Shown: positions 2,952-25,450 of the stretch, piece after piece
Layout of the letters: every line of letters starts with the position of its first letter
Position numbering within the stretch: the first letter of the stretch is position 1
Notes under the pieces: model-generated
Seen by the model: the letters and a program-made list of their open reading frames with translations, nothing else
The model's database searches: none
What the model was told of the DNA's origin: nothing
Position numbers and translations under genes: made by a program
DNA from: a virus
Direction: 5' to 3' (one strand)
Virus record (IMG/VR): IMGVR_UViG_3300016665_000824
Coordinates: 32,001-96,000 of that record
Length of the DNA: 64,000 nucleotides

Positions 2952-4403
2952 TTAATAATTCCAGTCAAGGGATTCGTAAACCAGAGTCATCGACTCGATC
3001 AGCTTCTCCGCGCCGACAAAGTATTCCTTCCCAGACGGCGTAGCGCCAATCAGGTAACAGTTTCTCAGTGTCGCGCCAAGCAAGCTAATTGTTCTCACTG
3101 CGGGGGTAGATCCTTTTGACAGGGCGGTGCGAGATGCGTTAGCTAGCGATCGCCATGCAATCACATCACTCGCTTTAACCCCTGACAACCCCAATGTTAC
3201 TGATTGGCGAGCGAGGGCTACCTGTGTTTGCACTCCATTGCGATTAAGGAGGATCTGTGAGTTATCGGCATCGGCAAAAGAGATCGAATCAACCTCATAG
3301 CCATCGAAGAAGTTTGCTGCGCCCGCACCCGTTTGATCGTAAGACCAATATTTGCTGATAAATTCAAGCTGGGTTGATGCTCGTATTTCCCGCCCGCTTA
3401 CGGTTACGGTTTCTGAAGGAGTGACATTAGTAAGAATTGCCGAGGGGATTGTGTAGCCAGCAACAGTTAACGAGATGACTTCAGGATTAAGAGCATCGGC
3501 AACATTTTCGACCTTGTGGATATAGTTGACTGCATATTCTGCGGGTGTGCCAATTACCGAGAAGGATATCCGCCGCTTAAAGGTTGGGACTTCGCGACGA
3601 CCCGAACCTGCTTGGTTAATTACAAATATCTTTGTATCAGCGCCAACATTAATATTCGCGATCGGGTAGCCATCGAAAGTCCCCTGAGAGAATGGGACAT
3701 CATAATTTCGAGTTTCATATTCAAGCACCAGTGCATCACTAATTTTGCCCAGCCCCGTAGTAATCGAAGCGGTCGGTGTTACTGATGTCAGTACTGCATT
3801 ACTTAAAGTAATACCGCCAATAGTAATGTCTTCAGTTAGTGGCGCAAGCAGGTCTGTATTCAGTAAGTTTAAAAATTTCTGATAGTCGGCTGGTGAAGTA
3901 CCTTTCAGGGTAATCGTCACCTTGCGGCGCTTAACTACGGCAGTACGAACTATGCCTGCATCGGCATACTGGACGCTAATCGAATCACCATCACCGAACT
4001 GAACCCCGTCTAACTCGACCGTATAACCTTTAAAGTGGTCGAAGGCTACACCATGCGTCCAAGTATTACTTTCGTAGAGCAGTCTTAAAGTCTCAACTAT
4101 TTGAGCTTCACCTACCTGCAAAATACCCGTTATTTCTGCGGAGACAAGGCGACATCCCGACAAACTGCGTCCACCATAGGAGATACTGTCACGGAGATCA
4201 GATCCTGCTTCTGCTGCGGACTGATAGTAAAGAACGTCGGCATCTGAGACCCCAGTAATGGTTATCCCGATGTTTGGGCGATAAGCCTTGAATTTTTGGA
4301 GCGTAGACCCGTCCTGCTTGGTGAATTCCCTAGACTCCGCCTCGCCAAACTGAATACCATCTGGCGCGATCGCAAATCCATCAAATTGTAAAAGCGAAAT
4401 CAT
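2952..4403 (-). CDS. Putative tail/baseplate structural protein
   Basis: 483-aa ORF, beta-rich composition, first large gene after tape-measure-like gene. Confidence 0.5.
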   Translation of the reverse strand: MISLLQFDGFAIAPDGIQFGEAESREFTKQDGSTLQKFKAYRPNIGITITGVSDADVLYYQSAAEAGSDLRDSISYGGRSLSGCRLVSAEITGILQVGEAQIVETLRLLYESNTWTHGVAFDHFKGYTVELDGVQFGDGDSISVQYADAGIVRTAVVKRRKVTITLKGTSPADYQKFLNLLNTDLLAPLTEDITIGGITLSNAVLTSVTPTASITTGLGKISDALVLEYETRNYDVPFSQGTFDGYPIANINVGADTKIFVINQAGSGRREVPTFKRRISFSVIGTPAEYAVNYIHKVENVADALNPEVISLTVAGYTIPSAILTNVTPSETVTVSGREIRASTQLEFISKYWSYDQTGAGAANFFDGYEVDSISFADADNSQILLNRNGVQTQVALARQSVTLGLSGVKASDVIAWRSLANASRTALSKGSTPAVRTISLLGATLRNCYLIGATPSGKEYFVGAEKLIESMTLVYESLDWNY

Positions 4404-4787: not shown

Positions 4788-5321
4788 GTGACTACACATA
4801 TGATACGAGCAATTCGTGCAATCGTCGAGCTTGATGATTTTTCTTTCGATGCGTACCAAATGCCAGACGGTGAAAAGCGCATTGGGTTTTTGGGAGCTTC
4901 CAACGTTTTAGGCTATGCTGACAACTGGTTGGGCAGGTTACATAAAGGCGATTCTCGGCAGCTAAAGGCTATACAGGGTATGGGTTATAGCGGCTTACAA
5001 ACCGAGGTCGAAATCATTCAACGGGGTAGGGAGATTAGCGCCTACGGGACTCGTGCAAATACTATCTCTCTTCGGGATTTTATTAAACTTGTAACTTATG
5101 AGGCTATCAAGAAAACAAATACCCGCGCAATTACTATTCTTGCCTCAATGGCTGAGTTTGGTTTTGAGCAAGTCATTGACATGGCTTTTGCTGGCAACCC
5201 AATGGATGAAATCCTTTCAAAGATCGTTCACTTTAGTCTATGGACTCAAGAAGAATGGGAGCAAGCTTTGGCGGATAACAGGGAAGACTTAGCTAATTTG
5301 CGACTTGGGATGTGGCGATAA
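4788..5321 (+). CDS. Accessory (moron-like) protein, unknown function
   Basis: 177-aa ORF on opposite strand between structural genes; preceded by CCACAAA direct-repeat element; convergent with giant ORF. Confidence 0.55.
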   Translation: MTTHMIRAIRAIVELDDFSFDAYQMPDGEKRIGFLGASNVLGYADNWLGRLHKGDSRQLKAIQGMGYSGLQTEVEIIQRGREISAYGTRANTISLRDFIKLVTYEAIKKTNTRAITILASMAEFGFEQVIDMAFAGNPMDEILSKIVHFSLWTQEEWEQALADNREDLANLRLGMWR

Positions 5322-5352
5322 GGTAACAAGGACTTGAGTCCTTGTTACCTTA
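5319..5352. terminator. Strong hairpin (15-bp stem, 4-nt loop) spanning the stop codons of two convergent genes
   Basis: TAAGGTAACAAGGAC-TTGA-GTCCTTGTTACCTTA; no flanking U-tract. Confidence 0.45.
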
Positions 5353-8300
5353 CTCCGCTAGTAACACCCGCTACTCGTCTCAAGACATTATTAAGCGTGT
5401 CATTAACAGCCTTCTGGACATCATTGCCCACACCCGCCGCAGAACTAATGTTGCTTTGAGTATTGATAGCGATCGGGGCATTAACCGTAATATTTCCACT
5501 TGTACCCAGAGCCGCACCCGTAGGATTGCCCTGTTGCTGAGGAACAAGATCTTTACCGCCAAGACTACCGAAAGCCTGCGCCAATGCCTCCGCTCTTTGA
5601 AGTTGTCCTTCGTCAAGCAAGGCGATCGGCTTGTCGAGTTTCTTCTGGGCTTCCTCAAATGCCTTGTCGTCGATCTTCAATGTCACGGGGTTCTCGGAGA
5701 TTTGCTTCGACACACGGTTAAATTCCGCTTCCAGTCCTGCGGTTAAATCTTTAACCTTGAGATCTGGGGCAACCAACACCTTGGAGAAGCCTTCATCGAT
5801 TTGCTGAGTTAACTTGTCGAACGAAGACGCGATCGCCTGTTCTGGCTTTGCTTCCTCCGTAGGTTTGCCACCGTACTTAGCGTTAAGCTCCTCAAACGAG
5901 TTGGCTTGAGCAGGATACTTCTTGTTAAGCTCCTCAAAGCTGCCTGCCATGCCCTTGTCGGGATATTTCTTGGCTAACTCCTCAAAGCTAGTAGCGAACG
6001 GTGCGTTATCAGGCTTTGGTTCGGGTGCAGCCGTAAATACTCCGCCCTGCTCAACCTGCCCAAGCAATGCCGAGGTGGGGTTCTTAAACGAAGCACCGCG
6101 AACATTAACAGGTTGGCTTGCCGCAGCCACAGCATTACTTACATCCGTGGTAGTCAATGCTGCTGTACCCGTATTTTGAGTTAAGCGAGCAAGCTGCTCT
6201 CGTTGTAGGCGCTCTTGCAGCGCAGGATCTCTAGTTGCGCCAATAACATCGCCGATCGCCGTATTAGTTTCGCCTTGCTGTTTATTGGCAAGAGCTTGAC
6301 GATCATTCTTGTTGACAATCTCGTTAACCTTGGCTTCGTCGGCAATGAAACCCTTTTCTTGCTGCAATCCACCCAATTCAAGAAAGTTCTTCTCCTGTCC
6401 AAGCTTGGCTTGAGCAAGTTTAAGCTTCGCCTCTTCGGACTGGGGACGTAGTTTAACCTCCAACTCGGCGGCTTTGATAGCAGCATCCTGTGAGGCAATG
6501 TCCACCTTCTTCTTGGCGATCGCGATTTCATTTTCGACCTTCTTGCGTTCAAGCAATAGGTCACGCTTCTGGATTTCCCGCTCCAAGGACTCGGCTTCAA
6601 ACTTTTGCTGTTGCTTGAGGGAATTAAGCTTAAGAACGGCAAGTTTTTCCGCAAGAATCAGCTTTTTCTCTTCGAGTTCGAGATCGGCAAAGTTGCCCTG
6701 ACCACCTGCGGCACGGATGGCAGCTTGTTGGCGATCGTAGATCTTGTTGAGAGCAGCAAACTCTGACTCGCGTAATGCCACTGTAGACTGGGCAAGTTTA
6801 TTTGCCGACTCGGATAGGCGGCTTTGATTCTCAAGCCCCTTTTCTAGTGCGGTGAATAATAGTTTTTGACGTTCAAGCTTGAGGTTTTGCTGCTCAATCG
6901 TGACCGCATACTTTTGTGATTCCAAGACTAGGCGATCGCGCACTGCGGAAACTAATCCTTCAATCGCCGCGAGTTCGGCTTCAGCGAGCTGTTTGGATAG
7001 TTCAGCAACCTTGATTAGATTAGCGTTCTTAGTTTCCTTGCTAACACCAACGCCCTTCTTCTCAAGATCGGCGATCGCCTTCTGCTTTTGTTGTTCGAGT
7101 TGCAGCTCTAAAGTGATACTGCGTTTACGTTCGGCAGTTTCTTGAAGCTTAATTTCAGATTCAAGCTTAATTCCCGACTTGCGGAGTTGAGCTATCTGAG
7201 CAAGACGCTGAGTCTCGCCAACCTTTTCGGCGGCAAGGGTCTCCTTAATCTGTGCATCCAATCCCTTAACAAAGCGCTCGGAACGGGCTTTGGCTATTTT
7301 TGCCTCAGCGTCCTTCCGTTTGTTGTCGGCATCCTCTTCTAATCGCGCTTTCTGGGCGGCGGTAGCCTTAACTAGATCAAGCTCTTTTTTGTTTGCGTCA
7401 GCAATAGAGTTTTTCGCCAAGTTTTGACGTTCGGCATCTGGCTTTGCGATTGAGGAAAGTTGATCCCTCTTTGTCTGCAACGTCCGAAGTTCAGACTCTT
7501 TCTTGGCGATCGCGTCCTGTTCCGCCTTGATCTGTGCGGTGTACTCCGAGGAATTAAAAAATGGCGCGTCTTTTACGGTGTTGAATCGCTGTAATGTCTC
7601 CGCATTCCCAGCTTTCAGACTAGACAAGGCTTTTTCCCCATCTTCAATCTGCTTCGTAATTCCCTCTAGCTGTCCCTGAGTATCCTCTGACAACTTTAAG
7701 GTGCTATCCAAGGTTCCTTTCTGGCTCTGGAGGCTATTAAGTCTTGATTGCAACACAGCAAGCTCGTCCGTTACTTTCTTAACGTCCTCGGCAGCGTTAT
7801 CTCCCGCAACACCCGTACTTATAGACTCTTGGAGAGCCTTCTTCCTTGCCTCTGCATCTTTGATCTGTTGACTGGTATCGTCGATCTTTCCTTGCAAGAC
7901 AGGAGCTTGAGCTTCCCTGACCTGCCGTATCTTTGAAGGATCTCCAGTTGCAGCAGCTAACTGCGCTTCCGCCAACTCGCGATCGCGCTTAATCTGTTGT
8001 TTCTGCTCATTAGCGTTGGTCTCCAAGATCTGCTGTCTTGCTCTTAGAGCCTTTTGATCGGCTTCAGACTGGGCTTGAATCTTCTTCTCCTCTAATTGTC
8101 CAGAGAGGGCGATCGATTCAGACTCAGAGATTCGCCCCGTGGCGAGCAAAGCTTGAATCTGGGAAAGTTGAGCGTCATAAATAGCTATGCGGCGATCCGC
8201 CTCCTTTTTGTACGCGGCAGTAATCGCTTCTTGAGCCTTTATCTGTAAATCGCGATCGGCAGAGACATTCGTAGCTACTTTTTGAAACGCTCCCGCAACT

Positions 8301-11300
8301 TCGTCTGCACGGAGAATCCCTGCATCTTGAAGGGCGTTAGCCGTTTCAAGCAACTCGCCCAACTTCGCCTTAAATAGCGCAGGATCTCCCGCAGACTTGT
8401 TTAAAGCGTCAAGGGCTGCATTATATTTTGAAGTTGCCTGCTCGATCGCATTACCAATACGAGGAAGATCAATAGCCTGAATTTGCAGGTTTACCGACTT
8501 GTAGGATTCTTGAAGTTTTCTAAGGGCTTCAAGTTCTCGATCTCTTTCTGCGTCTAAACCTTCTACAGCTTGAACCTGATTAATGATTGCCTCGATATTG
8601 TTGTTTCTTTCGGCGATCTCCTTCTTCTTATTCTCGATCTGAATATCAAAACGCGCAGCACCATCTTTGTCGCTTAGCGCTTCCGCCTTGGACTTTTCCT
8701 GCTCTAATTTAATTAAATCCTCTTGGAGTTTCTTCTGAGCAGACAGTCCTATTCCTAGATCAACCCGCCGAGAAGCTGACTGATTTAAGACGTTTTTATT
8801 ATCTTGCAATCTTATTTGGACGGCTTTCTCTTCAAGATTTCCTGCGCGATCGCCTAGACCTAACTTGTCGGAAGCGCCAAACGTTACCGTTCTTAGCCCC
8901 TCTCTTGCCGCGTCACCTGTAAGAGCAAAACCTTCTGTAACGCGAGTACCAATATTGTCTCTCTCTTTTTTAACCTTCTCCCTCAACGCGTCTTCGGAGT
9001 TGGTTGGTTTGCTTTGTAATCCCCTCAACTCTTTGAGTTTTGCGAGCTGTTGATCATACAGCTTTAAAGTGGGGTCATCTTGGAGGATGCTCTTGTCTTG
9101 GATTGAGGCAACATATTTTTCGCGTTCTGAGGTTAGGTTTGCTAGCTCAGAAGCGGCATCCTTTCCTTGCGATTTGTTTAGGATCGCAACCCTTGCGTCA
9201 CTATCTTTGAGCGCATCGTTGAGTTTGTCTACATTGGCTGTAGCTGCTTTTGTTTCCTGATCGACGTAGCCAACCAAGGTTGTTATTGCGGCGAAAGCTG
9301 CGCTTAACAATAATGTAGGACCAATTTCTGCGGCGAGGGCGGCGAAGGATTTGCTGATACCTTTGACATTCTCGGAAATAAACGAGGTAGCGCCTACAGC
9401 ACCCTTTTTGAGGTTTGAATAAAGTCCACCGACACTAACGTTCGCGTTTTGAGTGAAATCAGCAAAGCTAGACTTAGCTCGCGAGCCAAAATCTTTGACA
9501 CCAGAAAGAGCATCTTGGAAACCTGTCTTTAACCCAGCACCTAAATTTTTGAGGCTTAAATCGGGGAGAGAAATAGACTTGACTTGATTGACAAACTTAT
9601 CTATAGCGATACGAGAATTAGCCAAAGAAGCGGGAATATTTAGCTCTCTAAAGAACTTATCGAGTCCCAGTCTCGCGTTTGCAAGAGAGGTAGGGACGTT
9701 GATCTGGGAAAATGCTTTTTCAACCCCGTTGCGGAGGTTTACCAGCGAGGCAGGAATGTTGATATTTGCAAAGGCGTTCCGAATGCTAGCTTTAGTATTC
9801 TCAATTTGCGCGGGGAGATTTGCAAAGATACCAGTTTTTTGACTCGAATCCTGACTGAACCTTCCCTTAATGTCAGATATAAAACTACCAATAGAGTCGC
9901 CCAAGGACTTCAAAGAAGTTTTTGTCTTTGTGGCGATCGCTCCAATATCTTCTGCGAACTGTTTTGTGAACGGGACGGGAATTGGATTGGCAATAATCTG
10001 ACTTCGGAGCGACTTGATTCTGTCGGTAGTCTCCTGATAACTTTTAAGAGCCGCCGCACGAGCTTCGGGGGTTAACGACAGATCTGTAGAGTCTTTTTGG
10101 CTCACGATCGCCTGCTGTTTTAGTCCAGAGACCTCTCGTTTAGCGGCGACAACCTGAGTAGGATTTAGAGTCGTTGACTGAACTGGCTTGCCCCCAAGTA
10201 TTTCTCGAACACTATCGTTTAGCTTCTTGATGCGCCCAAAGGTTTCGCCAATACTGGCTCCAGCACCGCTAATTCCCGTGTTAATTGTCTTAAATACATT
10301 GGAGATTGTGCCACCAAACAGCTTGGTAACAGCGATCGCGATTAGCAATCCGCCAACTACTTTTTGAAAAGGATTGGAGTTCTCGCCAAAAGTAAAGAAC
10401 GGCAATATCGTGTCTGCAACCACCTTAATTACTGGTGCTAATACCGACCCTACCGTATCCGCAAACTTACGAATAGCTGCGGTTACATCCTGAATGATTT
10501 TTTGTAGACCTTTGTTCTTCAGGATTAACTGATCGAAGAAGACAAAACCAACAAATGTTCCAGCACCCAACAAGGCTGTTGATACGGCAAAAGACCTTGC
10601 CGCAGCTCCTGCCGCTTTTAATGAATTAGAGAAGATGCTGTTTACTTTCTCGGTATTTGTAGCGACATCGGCAAACTTGCCCAAGCTCTTGGCTGCGTCC
10701 GCAATCAACGGGCTAAACGAGCCAAATAGTTGGGACTTACCAACAATGCCTGAGAAAGCTGTTAAGGCGATCGGCGCTGCCTTCGTAAATCCTTGCAGTG
10801 CGGTTCCTAGCGCAGGAAATGCTTGAGTAAGTCCAATCAGTTTTACCCCAAAGCCACCTAGTGTTGGCAAAGCGGCAGTTATAACTCCCGCGAATGGCGA
10901 GAACGCACCGAGAACTTTGCCCAACTCTTTTTGGACTAAGCCAGCAGCACCAGGGATCTTGTTTAGATTCTCCGCCAACAACAGGAATCCAGCAGACCCT
11001 CGACCGACAACCGAACTTAAATTAGCAAAAGTGTTGACAACCCCGTTAGTACGCTTGTCAAGCAGGAAGAGAACTTCTCCCAAACCTGGTACAAGATTAA
11101 ACATCAACGAGAAGCCTTTGTTTAATGCCCCGATCGCGCCCGAAAGAACTTTTGCGCCGACGGAGATGCCGATCCAAATCCCTCCAAGAGGACCTACAAC
11201 ACCTGCAATTTGTTCAAACACATTAATAGCTGGCTGAACAACAGCAAGAGTAAGGCTCATCGCATCGGAAAAAGCCTTTACTGCGCCAGCGAGAGACTTG

Positions 11301-13780
11301 AATAGGTATTCTGGAACCTGCCCAAAGATCTGGAAGAATGGCCCCGCGAGACTTTTTAGGGTCGCAATCACGTTCTTGAATACGTCAAACAGTATTCCTG
11401 CGAGACTCCCTACTTGAGCAGCGATCGCGTCTTTATTCTTTGAGAAATACTGGTAAAACCCGTCAAGTTCCGCTACTAAAGGTGCGAGGAATTTCTCCCC
11501 AGCGAGTCTGCCGATCTCATCAACTAGCTCTTGAATATTGCTAACAATCCCACCCACGGACTGAGCAGCTAGCTTGTTTCCAGACTTAAATGCTTCTAAT
11601 CGACCTAAAAGCTCTTTGACGAAGGTTCCTTGAGACTTCCACTTAGCCACCATCTCATTGTTGAGGTTAAGCGATTTGGCAAGAGCTGAGTTTTGGTCAA
11701 TAGTTCCCGAAGTTATACTAACAACCTCTTGACGGGCTTGATATAAAGGTATGCCAAGCGTTCCGAGTGCGGCGGCGAACGAGGTTGTAATATTAGCAGC
11801 GTCATTCAAGGACGCGCCAATGTTGCTTGCCTGCCCAGCAACGATCTGAAAAACCCCGACAAGATCTTTACTGGTTACGCCGACCAGCTCTAACGAGTCT
11901 TTACGAATTTTATCGATCGCCCCTTCAACCGCAGGGCCAACCGCCTTGATCGCTTGAGTTGGATCTGATACGCGATCGCCATTAACTACGATTCTATTGG
12001 TTGCCGCTAAGCTCGCCTGAGTAGAGAGTAGTTGCTCTTGGAGCCTGATGTTTTGCCCAATCAACAGATCGAAAGGGCCGTTTTGTACAAATCCTTGGAG
12101 TGCCTGCAATCCCAATCCCAAGAAAGCAAGTCTCTGAGATACTTCAAAGATCGCGTTGGTTGCCTTGCCAGCACCTTCGCTAATTAGATTGAATACTTCT
12201 AGTGGTTCCGTCGCCCCCGCCACTGGAGCAACCACTGCGGCGGCAATATCTACAGGTTCTTGCAGCTTCGGGGCTATCTCTTGAGTCTTTTGAAACCCCT
12301 TAACGATAACATCATCAACACTATCGATGACAGTACCGACTTCGGCAAGGATTGTTGATCTCAGTCCATCAACAAAATTCTTACCTGCGATCGCGCCAGT
12401 ATCTTTTAAAAGCGAACTAAATGTTCCGCCAAAAAACTCGTCAATCTTGGTTGCAAGTTTTTGCAGTGAGCCATCCCCGCTTCCGATAGAATCAATCGCC
12501 GCGCCCAACCCTCCGTCAATAGCATCGACAGCTTTTAGGGCTAAATTCCTGAGAGGCGCAAGGATGCTAGTATCTTCTACGCTAAACAAGCTATTGAGAG
12601 CCTGTCCAACGCCTCCCTTTTGAGTCTCTATTAAAGGGCGGAGGATGGCAAAAGCGGATCTTAAATCCTCTGGAATTGCTTTTTCTAGTCCATTAAATAA
12701 CTGTCCAGACAACGCATTTCCAAAATCTTGCAACTCATTAGAGGCAACAATCGACCCCAAATTTGCCACCCCGATCTTGTTGGCAATCAGTTTTGCTAGT
12801 GGTGGTAGTGGCAACTTATCTACAAGCTGAGGGATTCGCCCCGCTAGGCGGTTGATCAGCTCAGATACAGAGCCGCCTAACTGTTCGTCAAGAATTTTAA
12901 ATTGATCGGTCGCCTCAGATCTGCTGCCGACGATTGCCCTGCCGACCGATCCTCCTAAAGCGCTAGATAAGCGCCCTACAACTCTTTGTCCGTCCTCAAC
13001 GTTTGGCGCGATTGCGTTAACGGCAAAAGCTTTAGCAGCACCCGATACCGACCCACCAGCCAACTGCTTCGACACTTCCGACAGCAATCCAGTTTTTGCC
13101 GCAGTCCGAAATGAGTTGGCGACAATTGAGGTTAAATCCGCCCCGAAAGCTTGGTTAACAATACCTTTTAAAGCGTCGGGGAGTCCTCCCCCAACAACGC
13201 CCGAAATGAGTGAGTCGGCGATCGCGTTATCTAGCGTTCCAGTAAAAGCCTCAACTCCCACTCCAAGCTTGCGCTGAATTTCTTGATTTAGCTTTGAAGC
13301 CCTAACATTTGCTTCTAACGCTTTACCGAAACTGTTTGCAGAATCGCTAAGTATCTGCGTAATTCTCTTGCCGTTATCCGAAAATATTGCAGACTGAGCT
13401 TGCTCTGCCGACTGCTTAGATAAGAATCCTCCTCCGACATCTTTTCCTGCAGAGGTAATCCCCTTGATTACCTTTGAGAGCGGAGCTAGTTTTGAAACTG
13501 CACTGTCGGCGACATTCGAGATCTGTTCTAAAAATATTTTGCCCGACTGCGTATCTAGTACATCTCGAACCGACTGAATTGCGTCTCTCAGCCCTCCAAA
13601 CGTGCCAATCGCGGTTGCCCCTACCGTGCTGATCGTTCCGCCAAGGGCTTGTACAGATCCCTTTGTTACGTCCGCAACAACACCAACACTTTTTAGACCA
13701 GCAGCTATCTCCGAAACTTGTTTGCTTGCTTGATCTTTCGCCTGTATTAAGATCTCAACAATATTGGTTTGCGGAGCCAT
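5345..13780 (-). CDS. Giant virion protein, tape-measure-like (tail length tape measure or ejection/internal virion protein)
   Basis: Uninterrupted 2811-aa ORF; Gly/Ala/Ser-rich hydrophobic N-terminal third, long E/K/Q/A/L-rich coiled-coil centre, internal tandem repeats, position between head and tail-fiber genes. Confidence 0.6.
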   Translation of the reverse strand: MAPQTNIVEILIQAKDQASKQVSEIAAGLKSVGVVADVTKGSVQALGGTISTVGATAIGTFGGLRDAIQSVRDVLDTQSGKIFLEQISNVADSAVSKLAPLSKVIKGITSAGKDVGGGFLSKQSAEQAQSAIFSDNGKRITQILSDSANSFGKALEANVRASKLNQEIQRKLGVGVEAFTGTLDNAIADSLISGVVGGGLPDALKGIVNQAFGADLTSIVANSFRTAAKTGLLSEVSKQLAGGSVSGAAKAFAVNAIAPNVEDGQRVVGRLSSALGGSVGRAIVGSRSEATDQFKILDEQLGGSVSELINRLAGRIPQLVDKLPLPPLAKLIANKIGVANLGSIVASNELQDFGNALSGQLFNGLEKAIPEDLRSAFAILRPLIETQKGGVGQALNSLFSVEDTSILAPLRNLALKAVDAIDGGLGAAIDSIGSGDGSLQKLATKIDEFFGGTFSSLLKDTGAIAGKNFVDGLRSTILAEVGTVIDSVDDVIVKGFQKTQEIAPKLQEPVDIAAAVVAPVAGATEPLEVFNLISEGAGKATNAIFEVSQRLAFLGLGLQALQGFVQNGPFDLLIGQNIRLQEQLLSTQASLAATNRIVVNGDRVSDPTQAIKAVGPAVEGAIDKIRKDSLELVGVTSKDLVGVFQIVAGQASNIGASLNDAANITTSFAAALGTLGIPLYQARQEVVSITSGTIDQNSALAKSLNLNNEMVAKWKSQGTFVKELLGRLEAFKSGNKLAAQSVGGIVSNIQELVDEIGRLAGEKFLAPLVAELDGFYQYFSKNKDAIAAQVGSLAGILFDVFKNVIATLKSLAGPFFQIFGQVPEYLFKSLAGAVKAFSDAMSLTLAVVQPAINVFEQIAGVVGPLGGIWIGISVGAKVLSGAIGALNKGFSLMFNLVPGLGEVLFLLDKRTNGVVNTFANLSSVVGRGSAGFLLLAENLNKIPGAAGLVQKELGKVLGAFSPFAGVITAALPTLGGFGVKLIGLTQAFPALGTALQGFTKAAPIALTAFSGIVGKSQLFGSFSPLIADAAKSLGKFADVATNTEKVNSIFSNSLKAAGAAARSFAVSTALLGAGTFVGFVFFDQLILKNKGLQKIIQDVTAAIRKFADTVGSVLAPVIKVVADTILPFFTFGENSNPFQKVVGGLLIAIAVTKLFGGTISNVFKTINTGISGAGASIGETFGRIKKLNDSVREILGGKPVQSTTLNPTQVVAAKREVSGLKQQAIVSQKDSTDLSLTPEARAAALKSYQETTDRIKSLRSQIIANPIPVPFTKQFAEDIGAIATKTKTSLKSLGDSIGSFISDIKGRFSQDSSQKTGIFANLPAQIENTKASIRNAFANINIPASLVNLRNGVEKAFSQINVPTSLANARLGLDKFFRELNIPASLANSRIAIDKFVNQVKSISLPDLSLKNLGAGLKTGFQDALSGVKDFGSRAKSSFADFTQNANVSVGGLYSNLKKGAVGATSFISENVKGISKSFAALAAEIGPTLLLSAAFAAITTLVGYVDQETKAATANVDKLNDALKDSDARVAILNKSQGKDAASELANLTSEREKYVASIQDKSILQDDPTLKLYDQQLAKLKELRGLQSKPTNSEDALREKVKKERDNIGTRVTEGFALTGDAAREGLRTVTFGASDKLGLGDRAGNLEEKAVQIRLQDNKNVLNQSASRRVDLGIGLSAQKKLQEDLIKLEQEKSKAEALSDKDGAARFDIQIENKKKEIAERNNNIEAIINQVQAVEGLDAERDRELEALRKLQESYKSVNLQIQAIDLPRIGNAIEQATSKYNAALDALNKSAGDPALFKAKLGELLETANALQDAGILRADEVAGAFQKVATNVSADRDLQIKAQEAITAAYKKEADRRIAIYDAQLSQIQALLATGRISESESIALSGQLEEKKIQAQSEADQKALRARQQILETNANEQKQQIKRDRELAEAQLAAATGDPSKIRQVREAQAPVLQGKIDDTSQQIKDAEARKKALQESISTGVAGDNAAEDVKKVTDELAVLQSRLNSLQSQKGTLDSTLKLSEDTQGQLEGITKQIEDGEKALSSLKAGNAETLQRFNTVKDAPFFNSSEYTAQIKAEQDAIAKKESELRTLQTKRDQLSSIAKPDAERQNLAKNSIADANKKELDLVKATAAQKARLEEDADNKRKDAEAKIAKARSERFVKGLDAQIKETLAAEKVGETQRLAQIAQLRKSGIKLESEIKLQETAERKRSITLELQLEQQKQKAIADLEKKGVGVSKETKNANLIKVAELSKQLAEAELAAIEGLVSAVRDRLVLESQKYAVTIEQQNLKLERQKLLFTALEKGLENQSRLSESANKLAQSTVALRESEFAALNKIYDRQQAAIRAAGGQGNFADLELEEKKLILAEKLAVLKLNSLKQQQKFEAESLEREIQKRDLLLERKKVENEIAIAKKKVDIASQDAAIKAAELEVKLRPQSEEAKLKLAQAKLGQEKNFLELGGLQQEKGFIADEAKVNEIVNKNDRQALANKQQGETNTAIGDVIGATRDPALQERLQREQLARLTQNTGTAALTTTDVSNAVAAASQPVNVRGASFKNPTSALLGQVEQGGVFTAAPEPKPDNAPFATSFEELAKKYPDKGMAGSFEELNKKYPAQANSFEELNAKYGGKPTEEAKPEQAIASSFDKLTQQIDEGFSKVLVAPDLKVKDLTAGLEAEFNRVSKQISENPVTLKIDDKAFEEAQKKLDKPIALLDEGQLQRAEALAQAFGSLGGKDLVPQQQGNPTGAALGTSGNITVNAPIAINTQSNISSAAGVGNDVQKAVNDTLNNVLRRVAGVTSGVR
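5872..6000 (-). repeat. Three imperfect tandem ~42-48-bp repeats near the 3' end of the giant ORF
   Basis: Encodes SFEELAKKYP / SFEELNKKYP / SFEELNAKYG. Confidence 0.65.
9581..9820 (-). repeat. Four tandem 60-bp (20-aa) repeats inside the giant ORF
   Basis: Encodes NIPASLVNLRNGVEKAFSQI / NVPTSLANARLGLDKFFREL / NIPASLANSRIAIDKFVNQV / NLPAQIENTKASIRNAFANI. Confidence 0.7.
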
Positions 13781-13823: not shown

Positions 13824-14171
13824 TTACTTTTGCTTTAGCTTTTCTGGCTCATATCGCGACACCAAGGCGATAAGCAGATCTTGAGACGGCTTTATTTCTG
13901 AGTCAGCCCATTCTTTGAAATACTTGTGATATCTAGAACAGCTAGCCTCGGCTTTAGCGGTTTGCTCTAGGGCTAGCTGCTTCGTGGGGTCGCTATCAGG
14001 GAGGGTCTTTAACCCCTCCTCTTTTCCTAGCAGACTATACGAAGTCGAGCAATACCTGTAATCTTCGGCGATCGCTGTCGCTGCCGACTTGGACTGAAAA
14101 GACCTTACAGCGCCAACTGAAAGCAACGCTAGCACGACTACCGCCCCTAATGTGATTGGATTAAGCTTCAT
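13824..14171 (-). CDS. Small protein with N-terminal signal/anchor sequence
   Basis: Likely start at MKLNPITLGAVVVLALLSVGAVRS (ATG 14171) rather than track start 14288, which overlaps upstream gene; two Cys. Confidence 0.4.
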   Translation of the reverse strand: MKLNPITLGAVVVLALLSVGAVRSFQSKSAATAIAEDYRYCSTSYSLLGKEEGLKTLPDSDPTKQLALEQTAKAEASCSRYHKYFKEWADSEIKPSQDLLIALVSRYEPEKLKQK

Positions 14172-14220
14172 TGATTTTTGTGATTTCTTCACGAAGATTA
14201 TAGCGCGATCGCCTCGCAAT

Positions 14221-16428
14221 TTATCCCTTACCGTTACTGGGTTTTGAGGTTGGCTTATAGACATCATAGAGAGAGCCAATCTTCCCATTCTTCTTAGAGG
14301 CGTATAAAATCATAGGATCTTGACCCTCCATAGGGGCGAAGCCAGCCTTTTCGTAAATACTCTTACGCTTACTGCCAGCCCCATCTTTGTCATAAGCCCC
14401 AGCCGTAAGAATAGAGTTGTCGGGCATAGCCTCAATATGCTTGGCAAACGAAGCCTTTGTCATGCGAATAATTTGTTTTGCTCCAGAAGCCCCAAGGTTG
14501 GCGGACTCCTCCTTGTTATTGGATTCGTTTATGGCGAAAGAAACCTCGTAGACACTTCCTCCAGAAGCTTCTTTTTTGTACACAGTCGTAAAGGTGTACA
14601 AGGCTGGTCCAACAGAAGCTACAGTATAAACCCCACCATTCTTTCTATCCCTGTAAGTGAAGCTGTTCGATTCTTTGTCTACGTCAATAAGATCCCGACC
14701 CTTAATAGACTGAGTTTTTCTTGCCAAGGCGAGCTTGGTCATTCCGATAAGACCTTTTGCTTTGTCTTTAAGGGCTGGGCTTAAATCAGATCTATCCAAA
14801 GCCCGATCCGCCACTTTCCCCAAGGCTAAACTCTGCTTGTAGGTCATAATCAGTGCAACATCTGAAATCTTGTAATCTTTTGTCGCTTGAATATTGCCAA
14901 TACCGACGACTCCAGCTACCACTGAACCTACGCTACCTGCGACGATCGCTGCCTTGCGAGCGCCTTTGTTAGAAAGTAGTCCGATAGCCTTGTCTACTGG
15001 TGTCTCCTTTTTTTGTAGGGGCGGCTGAGGTATAGAGAATTCCGTTTTTGGTTGTTGTGACTCGCTTGGATTACCCCCTTTTGTTGACTTGCCTCGGTTT
15101 GCAGCGATCGCCGCCGCACCACCAACTAAGGCAGCAGCACCTAAACCAGTACCAACATTTCGGGCTAAATTATTCTCGCTTTTTTTCTCGCCGATCTTTT
15201 GACAGGCGTTTCCACGCTGGACATAGCCTTCCTTGCATTTGAGCGTTCTACCCTTGTCGTAGCGCAAAGATACCGACATACGCCCCTCAAGATAAGACGA
15301 ATCATTCTGTAGATCGGCATCAGTCCGCCTTGTAGTTGCACTTTGATAGATGTTGCTAAATAGGTAAAGAACTTCGATATCCTCGTCATCCTCAACCGAG
15401 TCTCCCCTCTTCTCATTTATCTGGGATATCTTCTCGTTTGTTTTAGCCTCTACGTTTTCTCTAAAGTCCTTGAGTCCACCCCTCTTTGTTGCGAGGGTGA
15501 GAGCAGTGCCAAGAAGAATGGTGTCTCGCTCAGCTCTTCTTAGAACCTTCTGAAAAGGAGATAAGGTAGATTCATTCTTACCACCCGAAATCGACTTGGA
15601 CACATATTCTCCCGCAATGCGTTGAATTTCAGGATCTTTAGACCACTCGGAAGCTACGGATGAGCCATATTTCAAGGCTGCGCTACGAGCTTTTGGATTG
15701 GTCAGCACCTCTTTTGCGATAACCATAGAGGCTTTTTTCTTTGCTTCAACTAAGTTTGTTTCGTTACTAAATTCAGGAGCGACAAAAGTTCCGACAGCGC
15801 TGGCTACTTCTGGCTTTTCCGCAAGAATACTCAAAATTGCGGTAGCTTTATCTCTGTAAGCAGGATTGTTTAAATCCTTGATGCGCCTTTTAATCAATAC
15901 TTGAGATAAATTGTCTCCCTCACTTTTGATTTCACCTTTCTTCTCTTTTGACAAAAGGTTTGCCACTACAGAGACAGTCTTGTTCACCGCCACCGAAGCC
16001 GCCTTTTTCGTTGCGCCCAATATAATCTGATTCTTTTTCTGAGAGATCGCAGCCCCAGTTACCGCAACAACGGTACTGGCTCCAGCCGCCAAATACCTCT
16101 TCGCCAGAGGAAGTCCTTTCTCCCCTTTTTTGGAGGCAGTAGAACTCGAAAGAAGGGCAACAGGGGCGGGATCTACGGCTCTGTTTTCTTGCGGAGATCT
16201 TCTCGATGCGATCGCCGCCACACCGCCGACTAAAGCCGCAGCCCCTAGCCCTGCGCTAATATTTCGAGCTAAATCACCCCCAGCCTTCTTCTCGCCAATC
16301 TTCTGGCAAGCAGCCCCGCGCTGTACATAACCTTGCTTACACTTAATCTTCTTCCCCGCATCTTGACGTAGAGCGACAGACACCTGCCCCTCAAGATAAG
16401 CTAAGTCACTGGCTAAATCTCTCGTCAT
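14221..16428 (-). CDS. Cys-motif/hydrophobic-helix protein with duplicated anchor module and GNAT-like C-terminus
   Basis: 735 aa; two copies of CK[QE]GYVQRGxAC followed by GLGAAALVGG-type hydrophobic segment; C-terminal GASGAK...IYEKAGF resembles GNAT acetyltransferase motifs. Confidence 0.6.
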   Translation of the reverse strand: MTRDLASDLAYLEGQVSVALRQDAGKKIKCKQGYVQRGAACQKIGEKKAGGDLARNISAGLGAAALVGGVAAIASRRSPQENRAVDPAPVALLSSSTASKKGEKGLPLAKRYLAAGASTVVAVTGAAISQKKNQIILGATKKAASVAVNKTVSVVANLLSKEKKGEIKSEGDNLSQVLIKRRIKDLNNPAYRDKATAILSILAEKPEVASAVGTFVAPEFSNETNLVEAKKKASMVIAKEVLTNPKARSAALKYGSSVASEWSKDPEIQRIAGEYVSKSISGGKNESTLSPFQKVLRRAERDTILLGTALTLATKRGGLKDFRENVEAKTNEKISQINEKRGDSVEDDEDIEVLYLFSNIYQSATTRRTDADLQNDSSYLEGRMSVSLRYDKGRTLKCKEGYVQRGNACQKIGEKKSENNLARNVGTGLGAAALVGGAAAIAANRGKSTKGGNPSESQQPKTEFSIPQPPLQKKETPVDKAIGLLSNKGARKAAIVAGSVGSVVAGVVGIGNIQATKDYKISDVALIMTYKQSLALGKVADRALDRSDLSPALKDKAKGLIGMTKLALARKTQSIKGRDLIDVDKESNSFTYRDRKNGGVYTVASVGPALYTFTTVYKKEASGGSVYEVSFAINESNNKEESANLGASGAKQIIRMTKASFAKHIEAMPDNSILTAGAYDKDGAGSKRKSIYEKAGFAPMEGQDPMILYASKKNGKIGSLYDVYKPTSKPSNGKG

Positions 16429-16763
16429 TTCTTGCTCCGCTTTTTAATCATCTTGCTAATAGCTTCAGCTCCATTAGCCACTTTAGACTCAACCTTGCCC
16501 GTAGCTCGACCCGTGTTAAAGATTGCCTTACCAGTATTAAAATCCTCTTTCAATCCTGTTTTACCTTTATCGGCAAGTTTGGCGATCGCCACAGCAGTCA
16601 GTCCCGCGATCACGCCACGACCAACTGCGCCAGCAACACTCTTAATCGCTGTTTTAAGTTTGCCTTTACCACAAGTAGCGCCTTGAGGGATGCAGTAGGT
16701 TTTACCATCTTCTCCTTGGCAGGGTTTGCCGCGATCGCACGTTGTGTCTAGTCTAATCTTCAT
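16425..16763 (-). CDS. Small Cys-knot/hydrophobic-helix protein
   Basis: 112 aa; CDRGKPCQGEDGKTYCIPQGATCG then Gly/Ala-rich hydrophobic helix; 4-nt overlap with neighbours. Confidence 0.55.
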   Translation of the reverse strand: MKIRLDTTCDRGKPCQGEDGKTYCIPQGATCGKGKLKTAIKSVAGAVGRGVIAGLTAVAIAKLADKGKTGLKEDFNTGKAIFNTGRATGKVESKVANGAEAISKMIKKRSKK

Positions 16764-18468
16764 ACTTATTTTTCACCGCTTTTTCCACCGCAAGTCTGGC
16801 TGCAATACCAATCGCGATCTTAACTATGGGATGAGAACCTTCTGCGTAAGAAGGAGAGGCTTTTTGTAACGCTGCAAATGAAGCTTTCGTGCCTACATAT
16901 TGCGTTGCCGCGTCAGAAAACATCAATAGCGCAGTTTTTTCTGTCTGACCTAACGAGGAGTCGGACAACGTTCTCTCTGTCGCATCACGAGCAACTTTAC
17001 CTCCAAAGGCTCCAACCAAACTAGAACCAATCTCATATCCAAGCATCTTGAGTTTGTCTTTTTCTTGCCTCCCAATCGATTTTAAGGTGACAAAATCGCC
17101 CACTTGCTGGACAAAGTTCTTTTTCGCTTGCGGAGTTTGAATCATGGCTTGGAGGCTTCTGCCTGCGCTTGAATTGCGGAGTTTTCCAATAGAGCGGGTT
17201 AAGCGATCTCCTAGTCCGCCCCTTCCTTTTACTGTGGATAGAATAGCCTCCCCGACCTGCATCCCGTCCCTAGCCTTCTGCCTTAAGTCGTGTTGCTTCC
17301 CCTTAGGGGCATTAGCGATTAGGGCTAGCGTAGTCGCCGAGGCTGCTGCTACCCCTATTGTTGCCAAGGTTCTTGAGGAAATAAAAGGTTTTCTCTTTTC
17401 TGACCCGCAGGTTGCGTTTTTTGGGATACAGTAAGTCTGACCGTCCTCGCCCTTGCACGGCTTTCCGCGATCGCAGGTAGAATCTATTCTATTTTGAATA
17501 GATCTTGTTTTTTTGTAGATGTATCCGCTAGTCCTCCCCGTCTTAGATCTCAAAAAAGAATCTGTTTCTGTACTGATTTTGCGTGCAAACCCCTGATAAT
17601 CCTGAAAACGATCGGTCACAGTTCTGGGTTGCTTGTCCTGCCATTTTTCTGTTAATTGCCTGTTTAGATTGGCGTGAACGTCAGCCAACTCTTTAGCTAG
17701 TGAGCTACTAGGAGAAAATGCCCCCTCTCTTTTAGCCTGTAATACAGAGGTGGTTTCCGCTCCAGTCGCACGAATTTCTTTGATGTTACTAAAAAACGCT
17801 CCTACTTTTAAGTCGGCGGGACTAAAGGCTGACGTATCTCCAACCCCAGCAATATCTGGGTGATTGTGAGTCATCAGTACTGTGTTTTTTGCGGCTTTTT
17901 GATTATACGCATCGGTTATTCCAAGAGAGACCGAGCCTATCTGCCCTTTTCTGATCAGTGAAGGCTTGCCATCCACGTCAAAAGCAAAAAGAGTCTCGAA
18001 ATCATTATGCTGGATCTTTCTTTCTGCCGCGTAAACACTAATTGCAAGTTCTTTGGGGAGGTGGCTATATGCAGGAGCATCTCTTGCGGGAATGCCATTC
18101 TTGGCTACGTCTTCTCGTTCTTTCGCAAACTCCTTATAGGTTTCAACATCATCAAGCTTCTCTCTTATAACCTTATTGGCAATCATGGCTCCCACCCCCA
18201 GCGCTAAAAACTTAGCCGCCGCCTGAGGATCTTTAGAAGCTAATGCGGCTCCTGCCGCTAGTACAGTCAGTTTTGCAAGAGTTCCAGTTCCATCGCCCTT
18301 ACTAGCTGTGGATAGGGAACCAGTTCTAGATATCGGATGACAGGCGGAGCCTCTTTGGACATAACCTTGCCGACAATTGATTTTTTTGTACTCATCCCGC
18401 CTCTCCACATATCGCGATCGCGACAGTAGATACCCCATTTCGTACTCGTTCTTGTTATCTAGTCTCAC
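16753..18468 (-). CDS. Cys-motif/hydrophobic-helix protein with JAB/MPN-like (JAMM) signature
   Basis: 571 aa; N-terminal CRQGYVQRGSAC plus hydrophobic segment; central THNHP...SPAD (aa 200-219) resembles RadC/JAB HxH...SxxD; C-terminal CDRGKPCKGEDGQTYCIPKNATCG plus hydrophobic segment. Confidence 0.55.
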   Translation of the reverse strand: MRLDNKNEYEMGYLLSRSRYVERRDEYKKINCRQGYVQRGSACHPISRTGSLSTASKGDGTGTLAKLTVLAAGAALASKDPQAAAKFLALGVGAMIANKVIREKLDDVETYKEFAKEREDVAKNGIPARDAPAYSHLPKELAISVYAAERKIQHNDFETLFAFDVDGKPSLIRKGQIGSVSLGITDAYNQKAAKNTVLMTHNHPDIAGVGDTSAFSPADLKVGAFFSNIKEIRATGAETTSVLQAKREGAFSPSSSLAKELADVHANLNRQLTEKWQDKQPRTVTDRFQDYQGFARKISTETDSFLRSKTGRTSGYIYKKTRSIQNRIDSTCDRGKPCKGEDGQTYCIPKNATCGSEKRKPFISSRTLATIGVAAASATTLALIANAPKGKQHDLRQKARDGMQVGEAILSTVKGRGGLGDRLTRSIGKLRNSSAGRSLQAMIQTPQAKKNFVQQVGDFVTLKSIGRQEKDKLKMLGYEIGSSLVGAFGGKVARDATERTLSDSSLGQTEKTALLMFSDAATQYVGTKASFAALQKASPSYAEGSHPIVKIAIGIAARLAVEKAVKNKYED

Positions 18469-21083
18469 TGGCTTTGCTTCCTCGCTTTACGGCGTTGAGT
18501 TAATGTTGCATTGAGTTTTTTGGCGATCGCGTCAGCAGCATTTACCGACAGGTAATCCACTGCGCTGCCGTTAGTTCCTGAGAAGCTATCGGGGTTTTTG
18601 CCCTTGAATGGAGTTCGACTCCAGAGATCGCCGTCCGACCACAGATCGGTCTTTGGAGTTTTTAGCAGATCTGTATCTACTTTTTTCTTATCTACCTTCT
18701 CTCCCCCAAAACCCAGCTCAGGAGTTCCCAAAGTAACAAGGTGAATTTGTTTAGCAATATAAGTCCCAGCAACATTTCCTTGCGAACCTGTTTTTTGCAT
18801 TGACTCCAAGATGTCCAAAGCCCTTTTTGCTGTTTCTCCACCTTGCTTTAGCCCAATAACAGAAATAGCTGGGTATTCAGTTGAGCTTCCCTCGTATGAG
18901 CTGTTTCCGATAGCGTAAAGTTCCGCAGCCAACTTTACAGCTTCAGGGTCTCGTCCCGCTTTGAGGGTCTTACTCATCACGGCTTCGTAGCTTCTTGCCA
19001 TAGTGTCAATAACACCCATAACCCTGCCCCTAGACTGAGGCGGGAGGGTTCGATCAAAAGAAACCACGTCGCTTTGATCGTAGAAGTCTTTCTCTGCTTG
19101 AGACTGAAGCTTTGATCCGTTACTTTTAATTGATTTGCCCAGAACATCGCTAGGAGTTTCTCCATCTCCTATTGCGATAATGACGCTGGGATTTATTGGG
19201 GTAGGCAAAGTCGTTCGTCCACTTGCTACAATCTCTTGAGCCTCAAGAGCAGACTTCGCTATATTGTTGTTGTATTTAACCCTCGCAGCCACAGCAGCAG
19301 TCACCGTTACTTGACCAAGTACGGCTACAGTATTAATCGCTGCTGCTGTGGGATTGTCTTGATATTTATCCTTGATCGCAGAAACCAGATTCCACGTCTT
19401 TCCTAGCGTTGGGTTTACCGCAGTGATCGCCGCCGCTATTTCTTTTGCCCCCTTGTCGCTAGACTTGCTTCCCGCAACAGAATTAGAGAAAAATCCAAAC
19501 GTCTCGCGGATTTTATCTCTGACCGTGCTATCGGTTAAGTAGTCCTCAATCTCATGCCCCTTGACCGAGCTGACAAACTGCGAAAACCTCTTAGGCAGGA
19601 TTGAGAAAGGATCGTTTTTGGAGGTAATAGTGCGGTTGTTAATGTTCGCCCAGTTCTTGTCGTCTTGAGTTGTGCCACCCGTCAAACCGAAGGATGCACC
19701 GCCAAGTCTGGCGATATTGAGGCGCTTCAGAACTTCTCCACCATCAAGCCCCCTAGCAGGCTTGATCCGACTCAAAATTTCGGCAGCTTCATCAACAACG
19801 TTGCCCCCAGAACCGTGACTAACTACGTTCAAAGGCTTGTCACGATACTTAGAGCCATAAGCATACAATTTAGAAGCCAGATCCACCGCAGCTTCGTTTC
19901 TGCCACCGACAATATTGCTTAGATATTTGCCAAAACTTTCTTTAGCTACATACCCCAGATACAAGGGATTGTAGTTCCCGTTTTTATCCTTTGGGAGAAT
20001 ATCGGTTGGAGGAACATTAAACTCCGAATTGTTGAAGGGGATGACCTGCTGGGTCTTGTTAAACCACTGTTCCCGTTTTGAAGTGTCAAGCGGAGTTTTT
20101 AAATATTCAGCGAGCTTATCACCAGAAGAGCCAAGGTTGGAAAATCCTCCTACAGCAAAAGTTAGTTGAGGTTTGGAGGTTGGCTCGACAGGAGTAGTTT
20201 GTGCTCTTTGGTACGCCATTAGCGCCGATTCAGGCAAGCCTTCTTTGTAGCGATCGCGAGCGGTCATCATTACCGATGAGGGAATGCCCAGCAGTACGCT
20301 TGCCGCTAATATGCCTGCCGCAGGGCGATTGTCTCCAAAAAACTTGCTAATCTTTTCGATATCTTTCCATGCGCCAGCAACGGGTTGGGGTAGCAAACTC
20401 TTAAGAGCTTTCTTGCTAGACTCTGCGCGATTCAAGCCTTCACGAACAATCTTCTGGCGATCGGGATTGGCTTTTTGCAGGCGAATTGATTCTCGCAATT
20501 GAGCCTGACTCATATACGAGTAGCGATACACGCCTCGTTTGCGAGCTTCTTCCTTTAATTCCCGAATATTCTTGTTATCAAGATCGTCCTCAACTGGGGC
20601 AACGCCAACAAATTTCGCTTTTTGAACTTGGTTTACCGCATCATTCAGATCGGAAATCTCTTGTCTATTTAAAGCTTCAGGAACGTCAATACGGCAGGTG
20701 TCCGTCTTTGCAATACAAGCGCCTTTGCAGGATAGTCCAACCTTACAGTTCTTGGGCTTAGAAATTTTATCGGTACGTTGACCGATATTGTTTGCATAAG
20801 CAAGTAAGTACTGATCTGCGTCAGTATCTACTGCATCAGTGCGACCATCCTGTACCTGCTTATACTCAATGCGATCTCCTAATTCCAGCCGAATCAGCTT
20901 TTGATCCTTGTCATCATCACGAAACAGACAAGTGATAAGCCCGTCATTACCGATATTGATATTAAGGATCTGATCGATACTCCCGTAGGCGCGAGAAATA
21001 ATGCGAGTTAATAGCCTCGCAATCGTTCTTCTTGCGGCGAGAGGATCTGTGGTTTGAATTGGTGGTGGTGCGATCGCGTACAT
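18465..21083 (-). CDS. Large virion/effector-like protein with possible alpha/beta-hydrolase-like region
   Basis: 872 aa; CKVGLSCKGACIAKTDTC motif; VVSHGSGG (aa 421-428), NDPF (aa 490-493), KGHE (aa 508-511) in the order expected of a Ser-Asp-His hydrolase, not canonical GxSxG. Confidence 0.5.
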   Translation of the reverse strand: MYAIAPPPIQTTDPLAARRTIARLLTRIISRAYGSIDQILNINIGNDGLITCLFRDDDKDQKLIRLELGDRIEYKQVQDGRTDAVDTDADQYLLAYANNIGQRTDKISKPKNCKVGLSCKGACIAKTDTCRIDVPEALNRQEISDLNDAVNQVQKAKFVGVAPVEDDLDNKNIRELKEEARKRGVYRYSYMSQAQLRESIRLQKANPDRQKIVREGLNRAESSKKALKSLLPQPVAGAWKDIEKISKFFGDNRPAAGILAASVLLGIPSSVMMTARDRYKEGLPESALMAYQRAQTTPVEPTSKPQLTFAVGGFSNLGSSGDKLAEYLKTPLDTSKREQWFNKTQQVIPFNNSEFNVPPTDILPKDKNGNYNPLYLGYVAKESFGKYLSNIVGGRNEAAVDLASKLYAYGSKYRDKPLNVVSHGSGGNVVDEAAEILSRIKPARGLDGGEVLKRLNIARLGGASFGLTGGTTQDDKNWANINNRTITSKNDPFSILPKRFSQFVSSVKGHEIEDYLTDSTVRDKIRETFGFFSNSVAGSKSSDKGAKEIAAAITAVNPTLGKTWNLVSAIKDKYQDNPTAAAINTVAVLGQVTVTAAVAARVKYNNNIAKSALEAQEIVASGRTTLPTPINPSVIIAIGDGETPSDVLGKSIKSNGSKLQSQAEKDFYDQSDVVSFDRTLPPQSRGRVMGVIDTMARSYEAVMSKTLKAGRDPEAVKLAAELYAIGNSSYEGSSTEYPAISVIGLKQGGETAKRALDILESMQKTGSQGNVAGTYIAKQIHLVTLGTPELGFGGEKVDKKKVDTDLLKTPKTDLWSDGDLWSRTPFKGKNPDSFSGTNGSAVDYLSVNAADAIAKKLNATLTQRRKARKQSQ

Positions 21084-21085
21084 GA

Positions 21086-25440: not shown

Positions 25441-25450
25441 TGGACTCCTC

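Follow-up and report, generated by a model that had tools for sequence, protein, structure and literature searches.

We report that a giant open reading frame (ORF) in a 64,000-nucleotide stretch of viral DNA (positions 32,001 to 96,000 of IMG/VR record IMGVR_UViG_3300016665_000824; the whole stretch is hereafter the window) most probably encodes the tail-length ruler, or tape measure protein, of a siphovirus that has not been cultured and infects filamentous cyanobacteria. This DNA is of phage origin and forms part of a ~134-kb phage-like contig. Judged by its sequence homology, the 2811-amino-acid (aa) protein adds one more uncultured member to a family of giant tape measure proteins previously described from cyanophages, in which it is neither the longest nor architecturally different in kind. 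A preliminary description of the window had called the protein tape-measure-like, and this is the best-supported reading, carried by homology in a conserved core, the slot that relatives occupy in their genomes, a tube-fold gene directly downstream and structural matches in BFVD.

The giant ORF and its protein family

The giant ORF and the regions of its product are as follows.

5345–13780, minus strand: giant ORF, putative tail tape measure protein; ATG start, 2811 codons plus stop
12209–13780, minus strand: N-terminal Gly/Ala/Ser-rich region, aa 1–524; weak sub-threshold match to phrog_305 (tape measure)
10781–12208, minus strand: conserved family-defining core, aa 525–1000, from homology and the helical model
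10292–11209, minus strand: cluster of transmembrane-like hydrophobic segments, aa 858–1163, from 19-aa windows
9281–10183, minus strand: lineage-specific middle segment, aa 1200–1500, holding the 20-aa repeats
9584–9823, minus strand: tandem 20-aa repeats (one degenerate, three clear), aa 1320–1399, from a lag scan
9263–9346, minus strand: isolated transmembrane-like segment, aa 1479–1506, from 19-aa windows
6281–9283, minus strand: charged, Pro-poor, coiled-coil-like zone, aa ~1500–2500, from composition and heptad score
5348–6280, minus strand: C-terminal region, aa 2501–2811, of mixed composition; no enzymatic domain detected
5858–5989, minus strand: three SFEEL(A/N)(K/A)KY repeats, aa 2598–2641, from a lag scan

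Two public assemblies, contig ERZ27292652 k141_20893 from the ENA metagenomes (134,398 bp) and a contig of 21,299 bp from Logan, yield an identical 2811-aa product. The homologues P0002 (2840 aa) and P0003 (2917 aa) are 60% identical to it and align from residue 1 or 6 through the last residue. The same product in two assemblies, together with end-to-end homologues, indicates that the ORF is not an assembly or frameshift artefact and that its start is not over-extended. The single unbroken 8.4-kb ORF of the preliminary description thus held, and the frameshift or stop that might have split it was found in neither assembly. The idea that two or more genes were joined through assembly or sequencing error, for which the unusual length is the sole ground and nothing specific speaks, is effectively excluded by the identical ORF on both assemblies and by unbroken homologues of 2840, 2917, 2991 and up to 4212 aa.

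The core at aa 525–1000 is 38–43% identical to the cores of Aphanizomenon phage CL131 gp049, Planktothrix phage PaV-LD ORF088R and Nodularia phage 2AV2_176, all three of which carry a tape measure annotation. BLASTP aligned CL131 gp049 (2131 aa) at 37% identity across 773 aa (E 3e-139), PaV-LD ORF088R (1584 aa) at 43% (E 2e-99) and 2AV2_176 (3404 aa) at 38% (E 4e-76). The closest sequenced phages, all of them distant, infect filamentous cyanobacteria and comprise CL131, PaV-LD and several Nodularia phages. The family is further represented in the assemblies of Nostoc linckia, another Nostoc strain and a Trichocoleus metagenome-assembled genome. The protein of the window carries the family signature, which is a ~470-aa helical core (motifs SLELVGVTS and QARQEI.SI..GTIDQNS.LAK) followed by a hydrophobic cluster.

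A word-indexed homologue search with this low-complexity query returned merely 5 and 3 matches, so that an exhaustive search was needed, in which the core was run with phmmer against 1.84 billion cluster representatives (50% identity clusters). It retrieved 1218 representatives at E ≤ 1e-3, of which 354 reached E ≤ 1e-30. The best 148 representatives have a median length of 1828 aa and a maximum of 4212 aa, and 25 of them have at least 2811 aa; by this sequence comparison, 2811 aa is not exceptional inside the family. The core starts anywhere from residue 1 to residue 2295 in the same 148 representatives, and a fixed core with freely varying flanks matches what would be expected of a ruler. 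The one widely conserved stretch is aa 525–1000, with weaker conservation reaching through the hydrophobic cluster to aa ~1200. The first ~520 aa are common to 22 of the 156 proteins collected (the window's own protein counted), the C-terminal ~310 aa (aa 2501–2811) are conserved in four close relatives only, and aa 1200–1500 with the 20-aa repeats found a match in none of the other family members examined.

The tape measure assignment and its alternatives

Because the tape measure label in the databases descends from BLAST propagation, it was tested independently. In CL131 virions, gp049 was detected through LC-MS/MS with 84 peptides and 38% coverage, and tails of 361 nm and 795 nm have been reported for CL131 and Nodularia phage 2AV2, respectively (PMC6293099). 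The gene order around two distant members, P0005 and P0008, runs from portal, MuF, scaffold, cement, capsid and DUF4054 genes through three small genes to a 202-aa or 335-aa protein, an overlapping pair of 78 aa and 172/180 aa, and then the family member. We take the 202/335-aa protein to be the major tail protein, judging by where it lies and by a weak Big_5 Ig-like match of the 335-aa version, no tail-protein family match being recorded for it. This order supports the placement of P0005 and P0008 in the canonical siphovirus position of a tape measure gene, preceded by one tail-tube-like gene and a pair of chaperone-like ones. Downstream of the family member, contig L009 has a 156-aa and then a 1992-aa gene, and L012 has a 493-aa gene reaching the contig end; in both, the tail module encodes no long helical protein other than the family member.

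The giant gene of the window likewise lies in a tail module, directly upstream of a tube-fold/distal-tail-type gene. This next gene on the same strand (2952–4403, minus strand) encodes 483 aa in four tandem ~120-aa units, each homologous to the CL131 virion protein gp030. Structure comparison revealed a tail-tube fold in the ~120-aa unit and was the only approach to identify it, since hhalign of the unit profile against the lambda, TP901-1 and L009 tail proteins was uninformative. The modelled fold makes the four-unit protein a candidate for the role of tube initiator, distal tail protein or tube protein. The same tube-fold protein is present downstream in L005, the contig of the close relative P0002, and beyond its gene in the window follow homologues of CL131 gp031, gp032 and gp035.

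The predominantly α-helical, elongated character expected of a tape measure protein is seen in an AlphaFold2 model of aa 501–1200 and, for aa 1500–2500, suggested by the composition and heptad score. The model is all-helical, with a mean predicted local distance difference test score (pLDDT) of 56 and values of 70–85 at aa ~570–770. A Foldseek search with it gave 54 matches in BFVD at E ≤ 1e-3; beyond the three homologues, the named matches are nearly all tape measure proteins of unrelated phages, at low template modelling scores (~0.2) that point to a similar helical pattern rather than a rigid fold match. In the PDB, Foldseek found nothing with this model at E ≤ 1e-3, and searching by sequence, for the giant ORF and for four of its neighbours, likewise gave no match. 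Pfam, NCBIfam and PHROGs profiles were run on the whole protein and on five segments. The hidden Markov model (HMM) search for tape measure domains that the preliminary description had proposed brought only sub-threshold matches, to phrog_305 (E 3e-4) and Pfam TMP_3 (E 0.006, 16.7 bits against a cut-off of 41). Its counterpart for lysozyme and peptidase domains was negative, with no lysozyme, SLT or peptidase domain in the five segments by Pfam at E ≤ 5. Across 34 shorter family members, five tape measure PHROGs matched below threshold and the sole other match was phrog_30701, which has no assigned function; every sub-threshold match with an assigned function therefore points to tape measure families.

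Besides the low structural scores, several observations weigh against the tape measure assignment. The whole protein has no above-threshold match to PF10145, PF06791, PF20155, PF09718, TIGR01760 or TIGR02675, and none of the 34 shorter family members reaches the threshold of a curated tape measure model. Pfam tape measure families were equally missing from the cores of the CL131, PaV-LD, 2AV2 and P0005 homologues and from full-length P0004 and P0005. With a profile of 94 cores, hhalign found the TP901-1 TMP weakly (P 0.002) and gave nothing against lambda gpH. Neither an upstream major tail protein nor an overlapping or frameshifted chaperone pair is recognisable in the window, and the genes upstream of the giant ORF encode low-complexity proteins with Cys motifs. 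PaV-LD was reported as tailless despite its 1584-aa homologue (PMC6293099, PMC7156551). Finally, the 3404 aa of the 2AV2 protein would give ~510 nm at 0.15 nm per residue, and the reported 795 nm corresponds to 0.23 nm per residue, which is far from the value of a straight helix and misfits a simple helical ruler.

Some of these observations would also suit an internal or ejection protein, the alternative raised in the preliminary description, which would be packaged in the head in the manner of T7 gp14–16 or the N4 virion RNA polymerase, delivered with the DNA to form a trans-envelope channel, and have no part in tail length control. The tailless PaV-LD, the resemblance of the upstream genes to virion cargo rather than tail parts, the absence of the canonical chaperone pair in the window, the hydrophobic transmembrane-like segments and the want of a curated tape measure HMM match all speak for it. 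On the other hand, distant family members sit in the tape measure slot, a tube-fold gene comes next after the ORF, tails of 361 nm and 795 nm belong to isolates that carry family members, and the model has tape measure proteins as its neighbours in BFVD. The giant ORF encodes no Cys and hence lacks the Cys motif of the putative cargo proteins. Proteins of the T7 gp14–16 type bear a lytic transglycosylase or other enzymatic domain, and in short-tailed phages their genes lie between those for the tail tubular proteins and the fibres; the searches of the giant ORF detected neither a lytic transglycosylase nor a lysozyme or peptidase domain, and its relatives belong to long-tailed phages. We therefore consider the head-packaged version poorly supported and improbable. 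Ejection as such is not truly exclusive of the tape measure assignment, because tape measure proteins are themselves ejected.

The protein might instead be a tail structural component other than the ruler, such as a central fibre or needle or a plug of the tail lumen, with the length set by another protein, for example a relative of CL131 gp048. A second giant gene does lie just upstream of the family member in CL131 (gp048, 1811 aa) and Nostoc linckia (1748 aa), and the relatives differ in their ratios (0.17 against 0.23 nm per residue). However, the gp048 counterpart in the window has merely 872 aa, with hydrolase-like motifs and no long helix, and L009 and L012 offer no second long helical protein that could take the part of the ruler. 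We regard this explanation as very improbable.

For the tape measure protein that we favour, a mechanism may be drawn by analogy with lambda gpH, the TP901-1 TMP and T5 pb2, in which the length of the tail is known to scale with that of the protein. Through its C-terminal region, the mostly α-helical protein would be anchored, in a few copies, in a tail-tip complex assembled from the tube-fold protein encoded downstream and those of 283 aa and 819 aa. Tube polymerisation would proceed around the extended protein and terminate at its N-terminal end, so that the length of the tail would track that of the protein. At infection the protein would be expelled before the DNA, and the hydrophobic segments at aa 858–1163 and 1479–1506 might contribute to a conduit through the envelope.

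By the same analogy, a flexible tail of about 420–480 nm is predicted for the phage, depending on the ratio applied. The second ratio comes from Microcystis phage Mic1, with a 2572-aa tape measure protein (ORF35) and a 400-nm tail (PMC6293099, PMC7156551).

Straight α-helix, 0.15 nm per residue: predicted tail 422 nm
Mic1 ratio, 0.156 nm per residue: predicted tail ~440 nm
CL131 ratio, 0.169 nm per residue: predicted tail ~475 nm

The unusually long tail foreseen in the preliminary description would be so in comparison with typical phages and not within the family, given the 25 of the best 148 representatives that are at least as long and the 361–795 nm tails of the relatives (PMC6293099). A more far-reaching idea, which we hold to be unlikely, is that the core family (absent from Pfam and NCBIfam, with more than 1200 clusters and proteins up to 4212 aa) is an uncatalogued tape measure lineage specifying the longest siphovirus tails known, its length evolving by insertion and tandem duplication of short helical units, of which aa 1200–1500 would be a preserved example. 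In a still more radical version, the protein might mainly form a conduit for crossing the thick cyanobacterial envelope instead of acting as a simple helical ruler, as the ratios of 0.17–0.23 nm per residue and the reportedly tailless PaV-LD might imply.

The analysis provides a functional label for the largest gene in this ~134-kb uncultured cyanophage. Large as it is, the protein is an ordinary member of a family known from isolated phages; of more interest are the four-fold tube-fold fusion, the set of Cys-motif proteins and the absence of the family from curated HMM libraries. The core family, with at least 1218 clusters, is without a Pfam or NCBIfam model and is only marginally matched by PHROGs models built for other tape measure families. 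Since this family from phages of filamentous cyanobacteria escapes all curated HMMs, its genes are left unannotated in metagenomes, and a profile built from the aa 525–1000 core would close this annotation gap.

Protein architecture and comparison with known systems

The giant protein contains no Cys, no His and two Trp. The Gly/Ala/Ser-rich hydrophobic N-terminal part is present as the preliminary description had it, and extends over the first ~1200 aa, or 43% of the protein, rather than a third: in aa 1–1200 the mean hydropathy is zero to positive, with Gly+Ala+Ser at 27–39%. The coiled-coil centre is likewise apparent in the composition and heptad score, at a smaller size than the ~1500 aa first proposed. 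The zone at aa ~1500–2500 is Pro-poor with 28–39% K/R/D/E, and only there does a crude heptad score rise above the 99th percentile of shuffles, which confines the coiled-coil-like part to ~1000 aa.

Repeats were scored by a lag scan against shuffled sequence. The lag-20 BLOSUM score of 70, compared with a shuffle mean of 33 and maximum of 42 (100 shuffles), distinguishes three clear 20-aa copies at aa 1340–1399 (window 9584–9763), with pairwise identities of 50% in protein and 50–57% in DNA. The fourth of the four tandem copies originally described, upstream of the clear three at aa 1320–1339, is degenerate, with just 20–30% identity. The three C-terminal SFEEL repeats were also recovered, with copies at aa 2598, 2614 and 2628, followed at aa 2653 by SFDKL, a degenerate form; scoring 46 and 42 against a shuffle maximum of 42, the three copies are marginal. 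Tandem Repeats Finder detected no DNA-level repeat in the gene, and self-BLASTP of the giant protein no internal repeat. The aa 1200–1500 insert with its diverged 20-aa repeats looks like the trace of a length change via tandem duplication.

The nearest comparison is with CL131. Its gp049 shares the conserved core, the hydrophobic cluster and the coiled-coil zone; it comes after the same head module (DUF2213 scaffold, cement, DUF2184 capsid and DUF4054), and homologues of gp030, gp031, gp032 and gp035 sit downstream of the giant ORF. By contrast, the protein of the window is 680 aa longer and has an additional N-terminal region of ~390 aa, and the aa 1200–1500 insert with the 20-aa repeats is unique to it. 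The tail-tip module lies upstream of the head genes in CL131, whereas it is directly downstream of the giant ORF in the window, where the gp030 unit occurs four times in one polypeptide. 2AV2_176 and PaV-LD ORF088R have the same core at 38–43% identity, positioned at residue 1643 in 2AV2 and 32 in PaV-LD compared with 525 here, and their flanks are unrelated or weakly similar. The 3404-aa gene of 2AV2 (L006 10997–21211) also differs in lying among replication and metabolic genes instead of structural ones.

Mic1 ORF35 is a functional analogue of similar size from a long-tailed cyanophage and is also without Cys; homology between the sequences could not be detected (best BLASTP E 0.03; hhalign P 0.11). 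The tape measure gene of Mic1 opens the tail module, with the tube gene far downstream, and this order sets a precedent for a window without a recognisable upstream major tail protein and chaperone pair. Lambda gpH, the TP901-1 TMP and T5 pb2 are similarly long helical proteins with hydrophobic segments, encoded just upstream of distal-tail genes, but are 3–4 times shorter. Their classical systems have a G/GT chaperone pair upstream, in contrast to the window, and T5 pb2 has a C-terminal peptidase, which was not found here.

Gene neighbourhood in the window

The window encodes a primase, a DnaB helicase and a Rha regulator in addition to the genes and motifs listed below; no tRNA genes were found in it.

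41553–43208: portal
32672–33812: MuF and Phage_tail_S proteins
26337–27827: DUF2213 scaffold/protease
24529–26323: cement-like protein and DUF2184 major capsid protein
22969–23388: DUF4054 connector
13824–14288, minus strand: small ORF directly upstream of the giant gene, its C-terminal two-thirds (aa 62–154) conserved beside the giant gene in L005
21311–21367, 20694–20747, 17407–17475, 18340–18375, 16671–16739 and 16306–16341, minus strand: Cys motifs

The small ORF at 13824–14288 has an N-terminal hydrophobic helix, MKLNPITLGAVVVLALLSVGAV, when read from an internal ATG near 14171, and bears no resemblance to a G/GT tail chaperone. No homologue of the L009/L012 tail protein or chaperone-like pair was found in the window, and the major tail tube protein of the phage was not identified among the genes of the window. 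A 468-aa upstream protein was considered as a T5-like tube protein and rejected, being low-complexity and Pro/Lys-rich, with a Cys motif and a transmembrane-like stretch.

Five consecutive proteins of 468, 872, 571, 112 and 735 aa (window 14221–22492, minus strand) have short Cys motifs in common, for example CGSGTKPCGKICIPQEKNC, CDRGKPC.GEDG.TYCIP...ATC and C[KR]QGYVQRG.AC, often followed by Gly/Ala-rich transmembrane-like stretches. The same Cys motif heads CL131 gp044, gp045 and gp047, which are virion proteins by mass spectrometry, and PaV-LD ORF078R–081R and 085R, and these proteins of CL131 and PaV-LD bear differing enzyme-like domains. This pattern of shared motifs suggests that the Cys motif could be a common packaging or targeting module on virion cargo. 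The 571-aa protein (16753–18468, minus strand) has a putative JAB/RadC-like motif, LMTHNHPDIAGVGDTSAFSPADL, likewise in CL131 gp044, and the 872-aa protein (18465–21083, minus strand), which shows homology to parts of CL131 gp048, has putative hydrolase motifs of the GxSxG type (SHGSGG); the motifs were read by eye from the sequences, and neither protein has a Pfam match. In the Trichocoleus contig, the giant gene comes directly after a 879-aa homologue of this 872-aa protein.

Between the giant and tube-fold genes, a 177-aa ORF on the opposite strand (4788–5321, plus strand) matches phrog_32599, a family of unknown function (E 3e-22). L005 has a 170-aa opposite-strand ORF at the equivalent position, and the 177-aa ORF may be a moron-like insertion. 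The capsid ORF (24529–25728, minus strand; 399 aa, TTG start) overlaps the 290-aa cement-like gene (25451–26323). Since its homologues have ~305–310 aa and align from residue ~95–135, translation probably begins at an internal ATG near residue 96.

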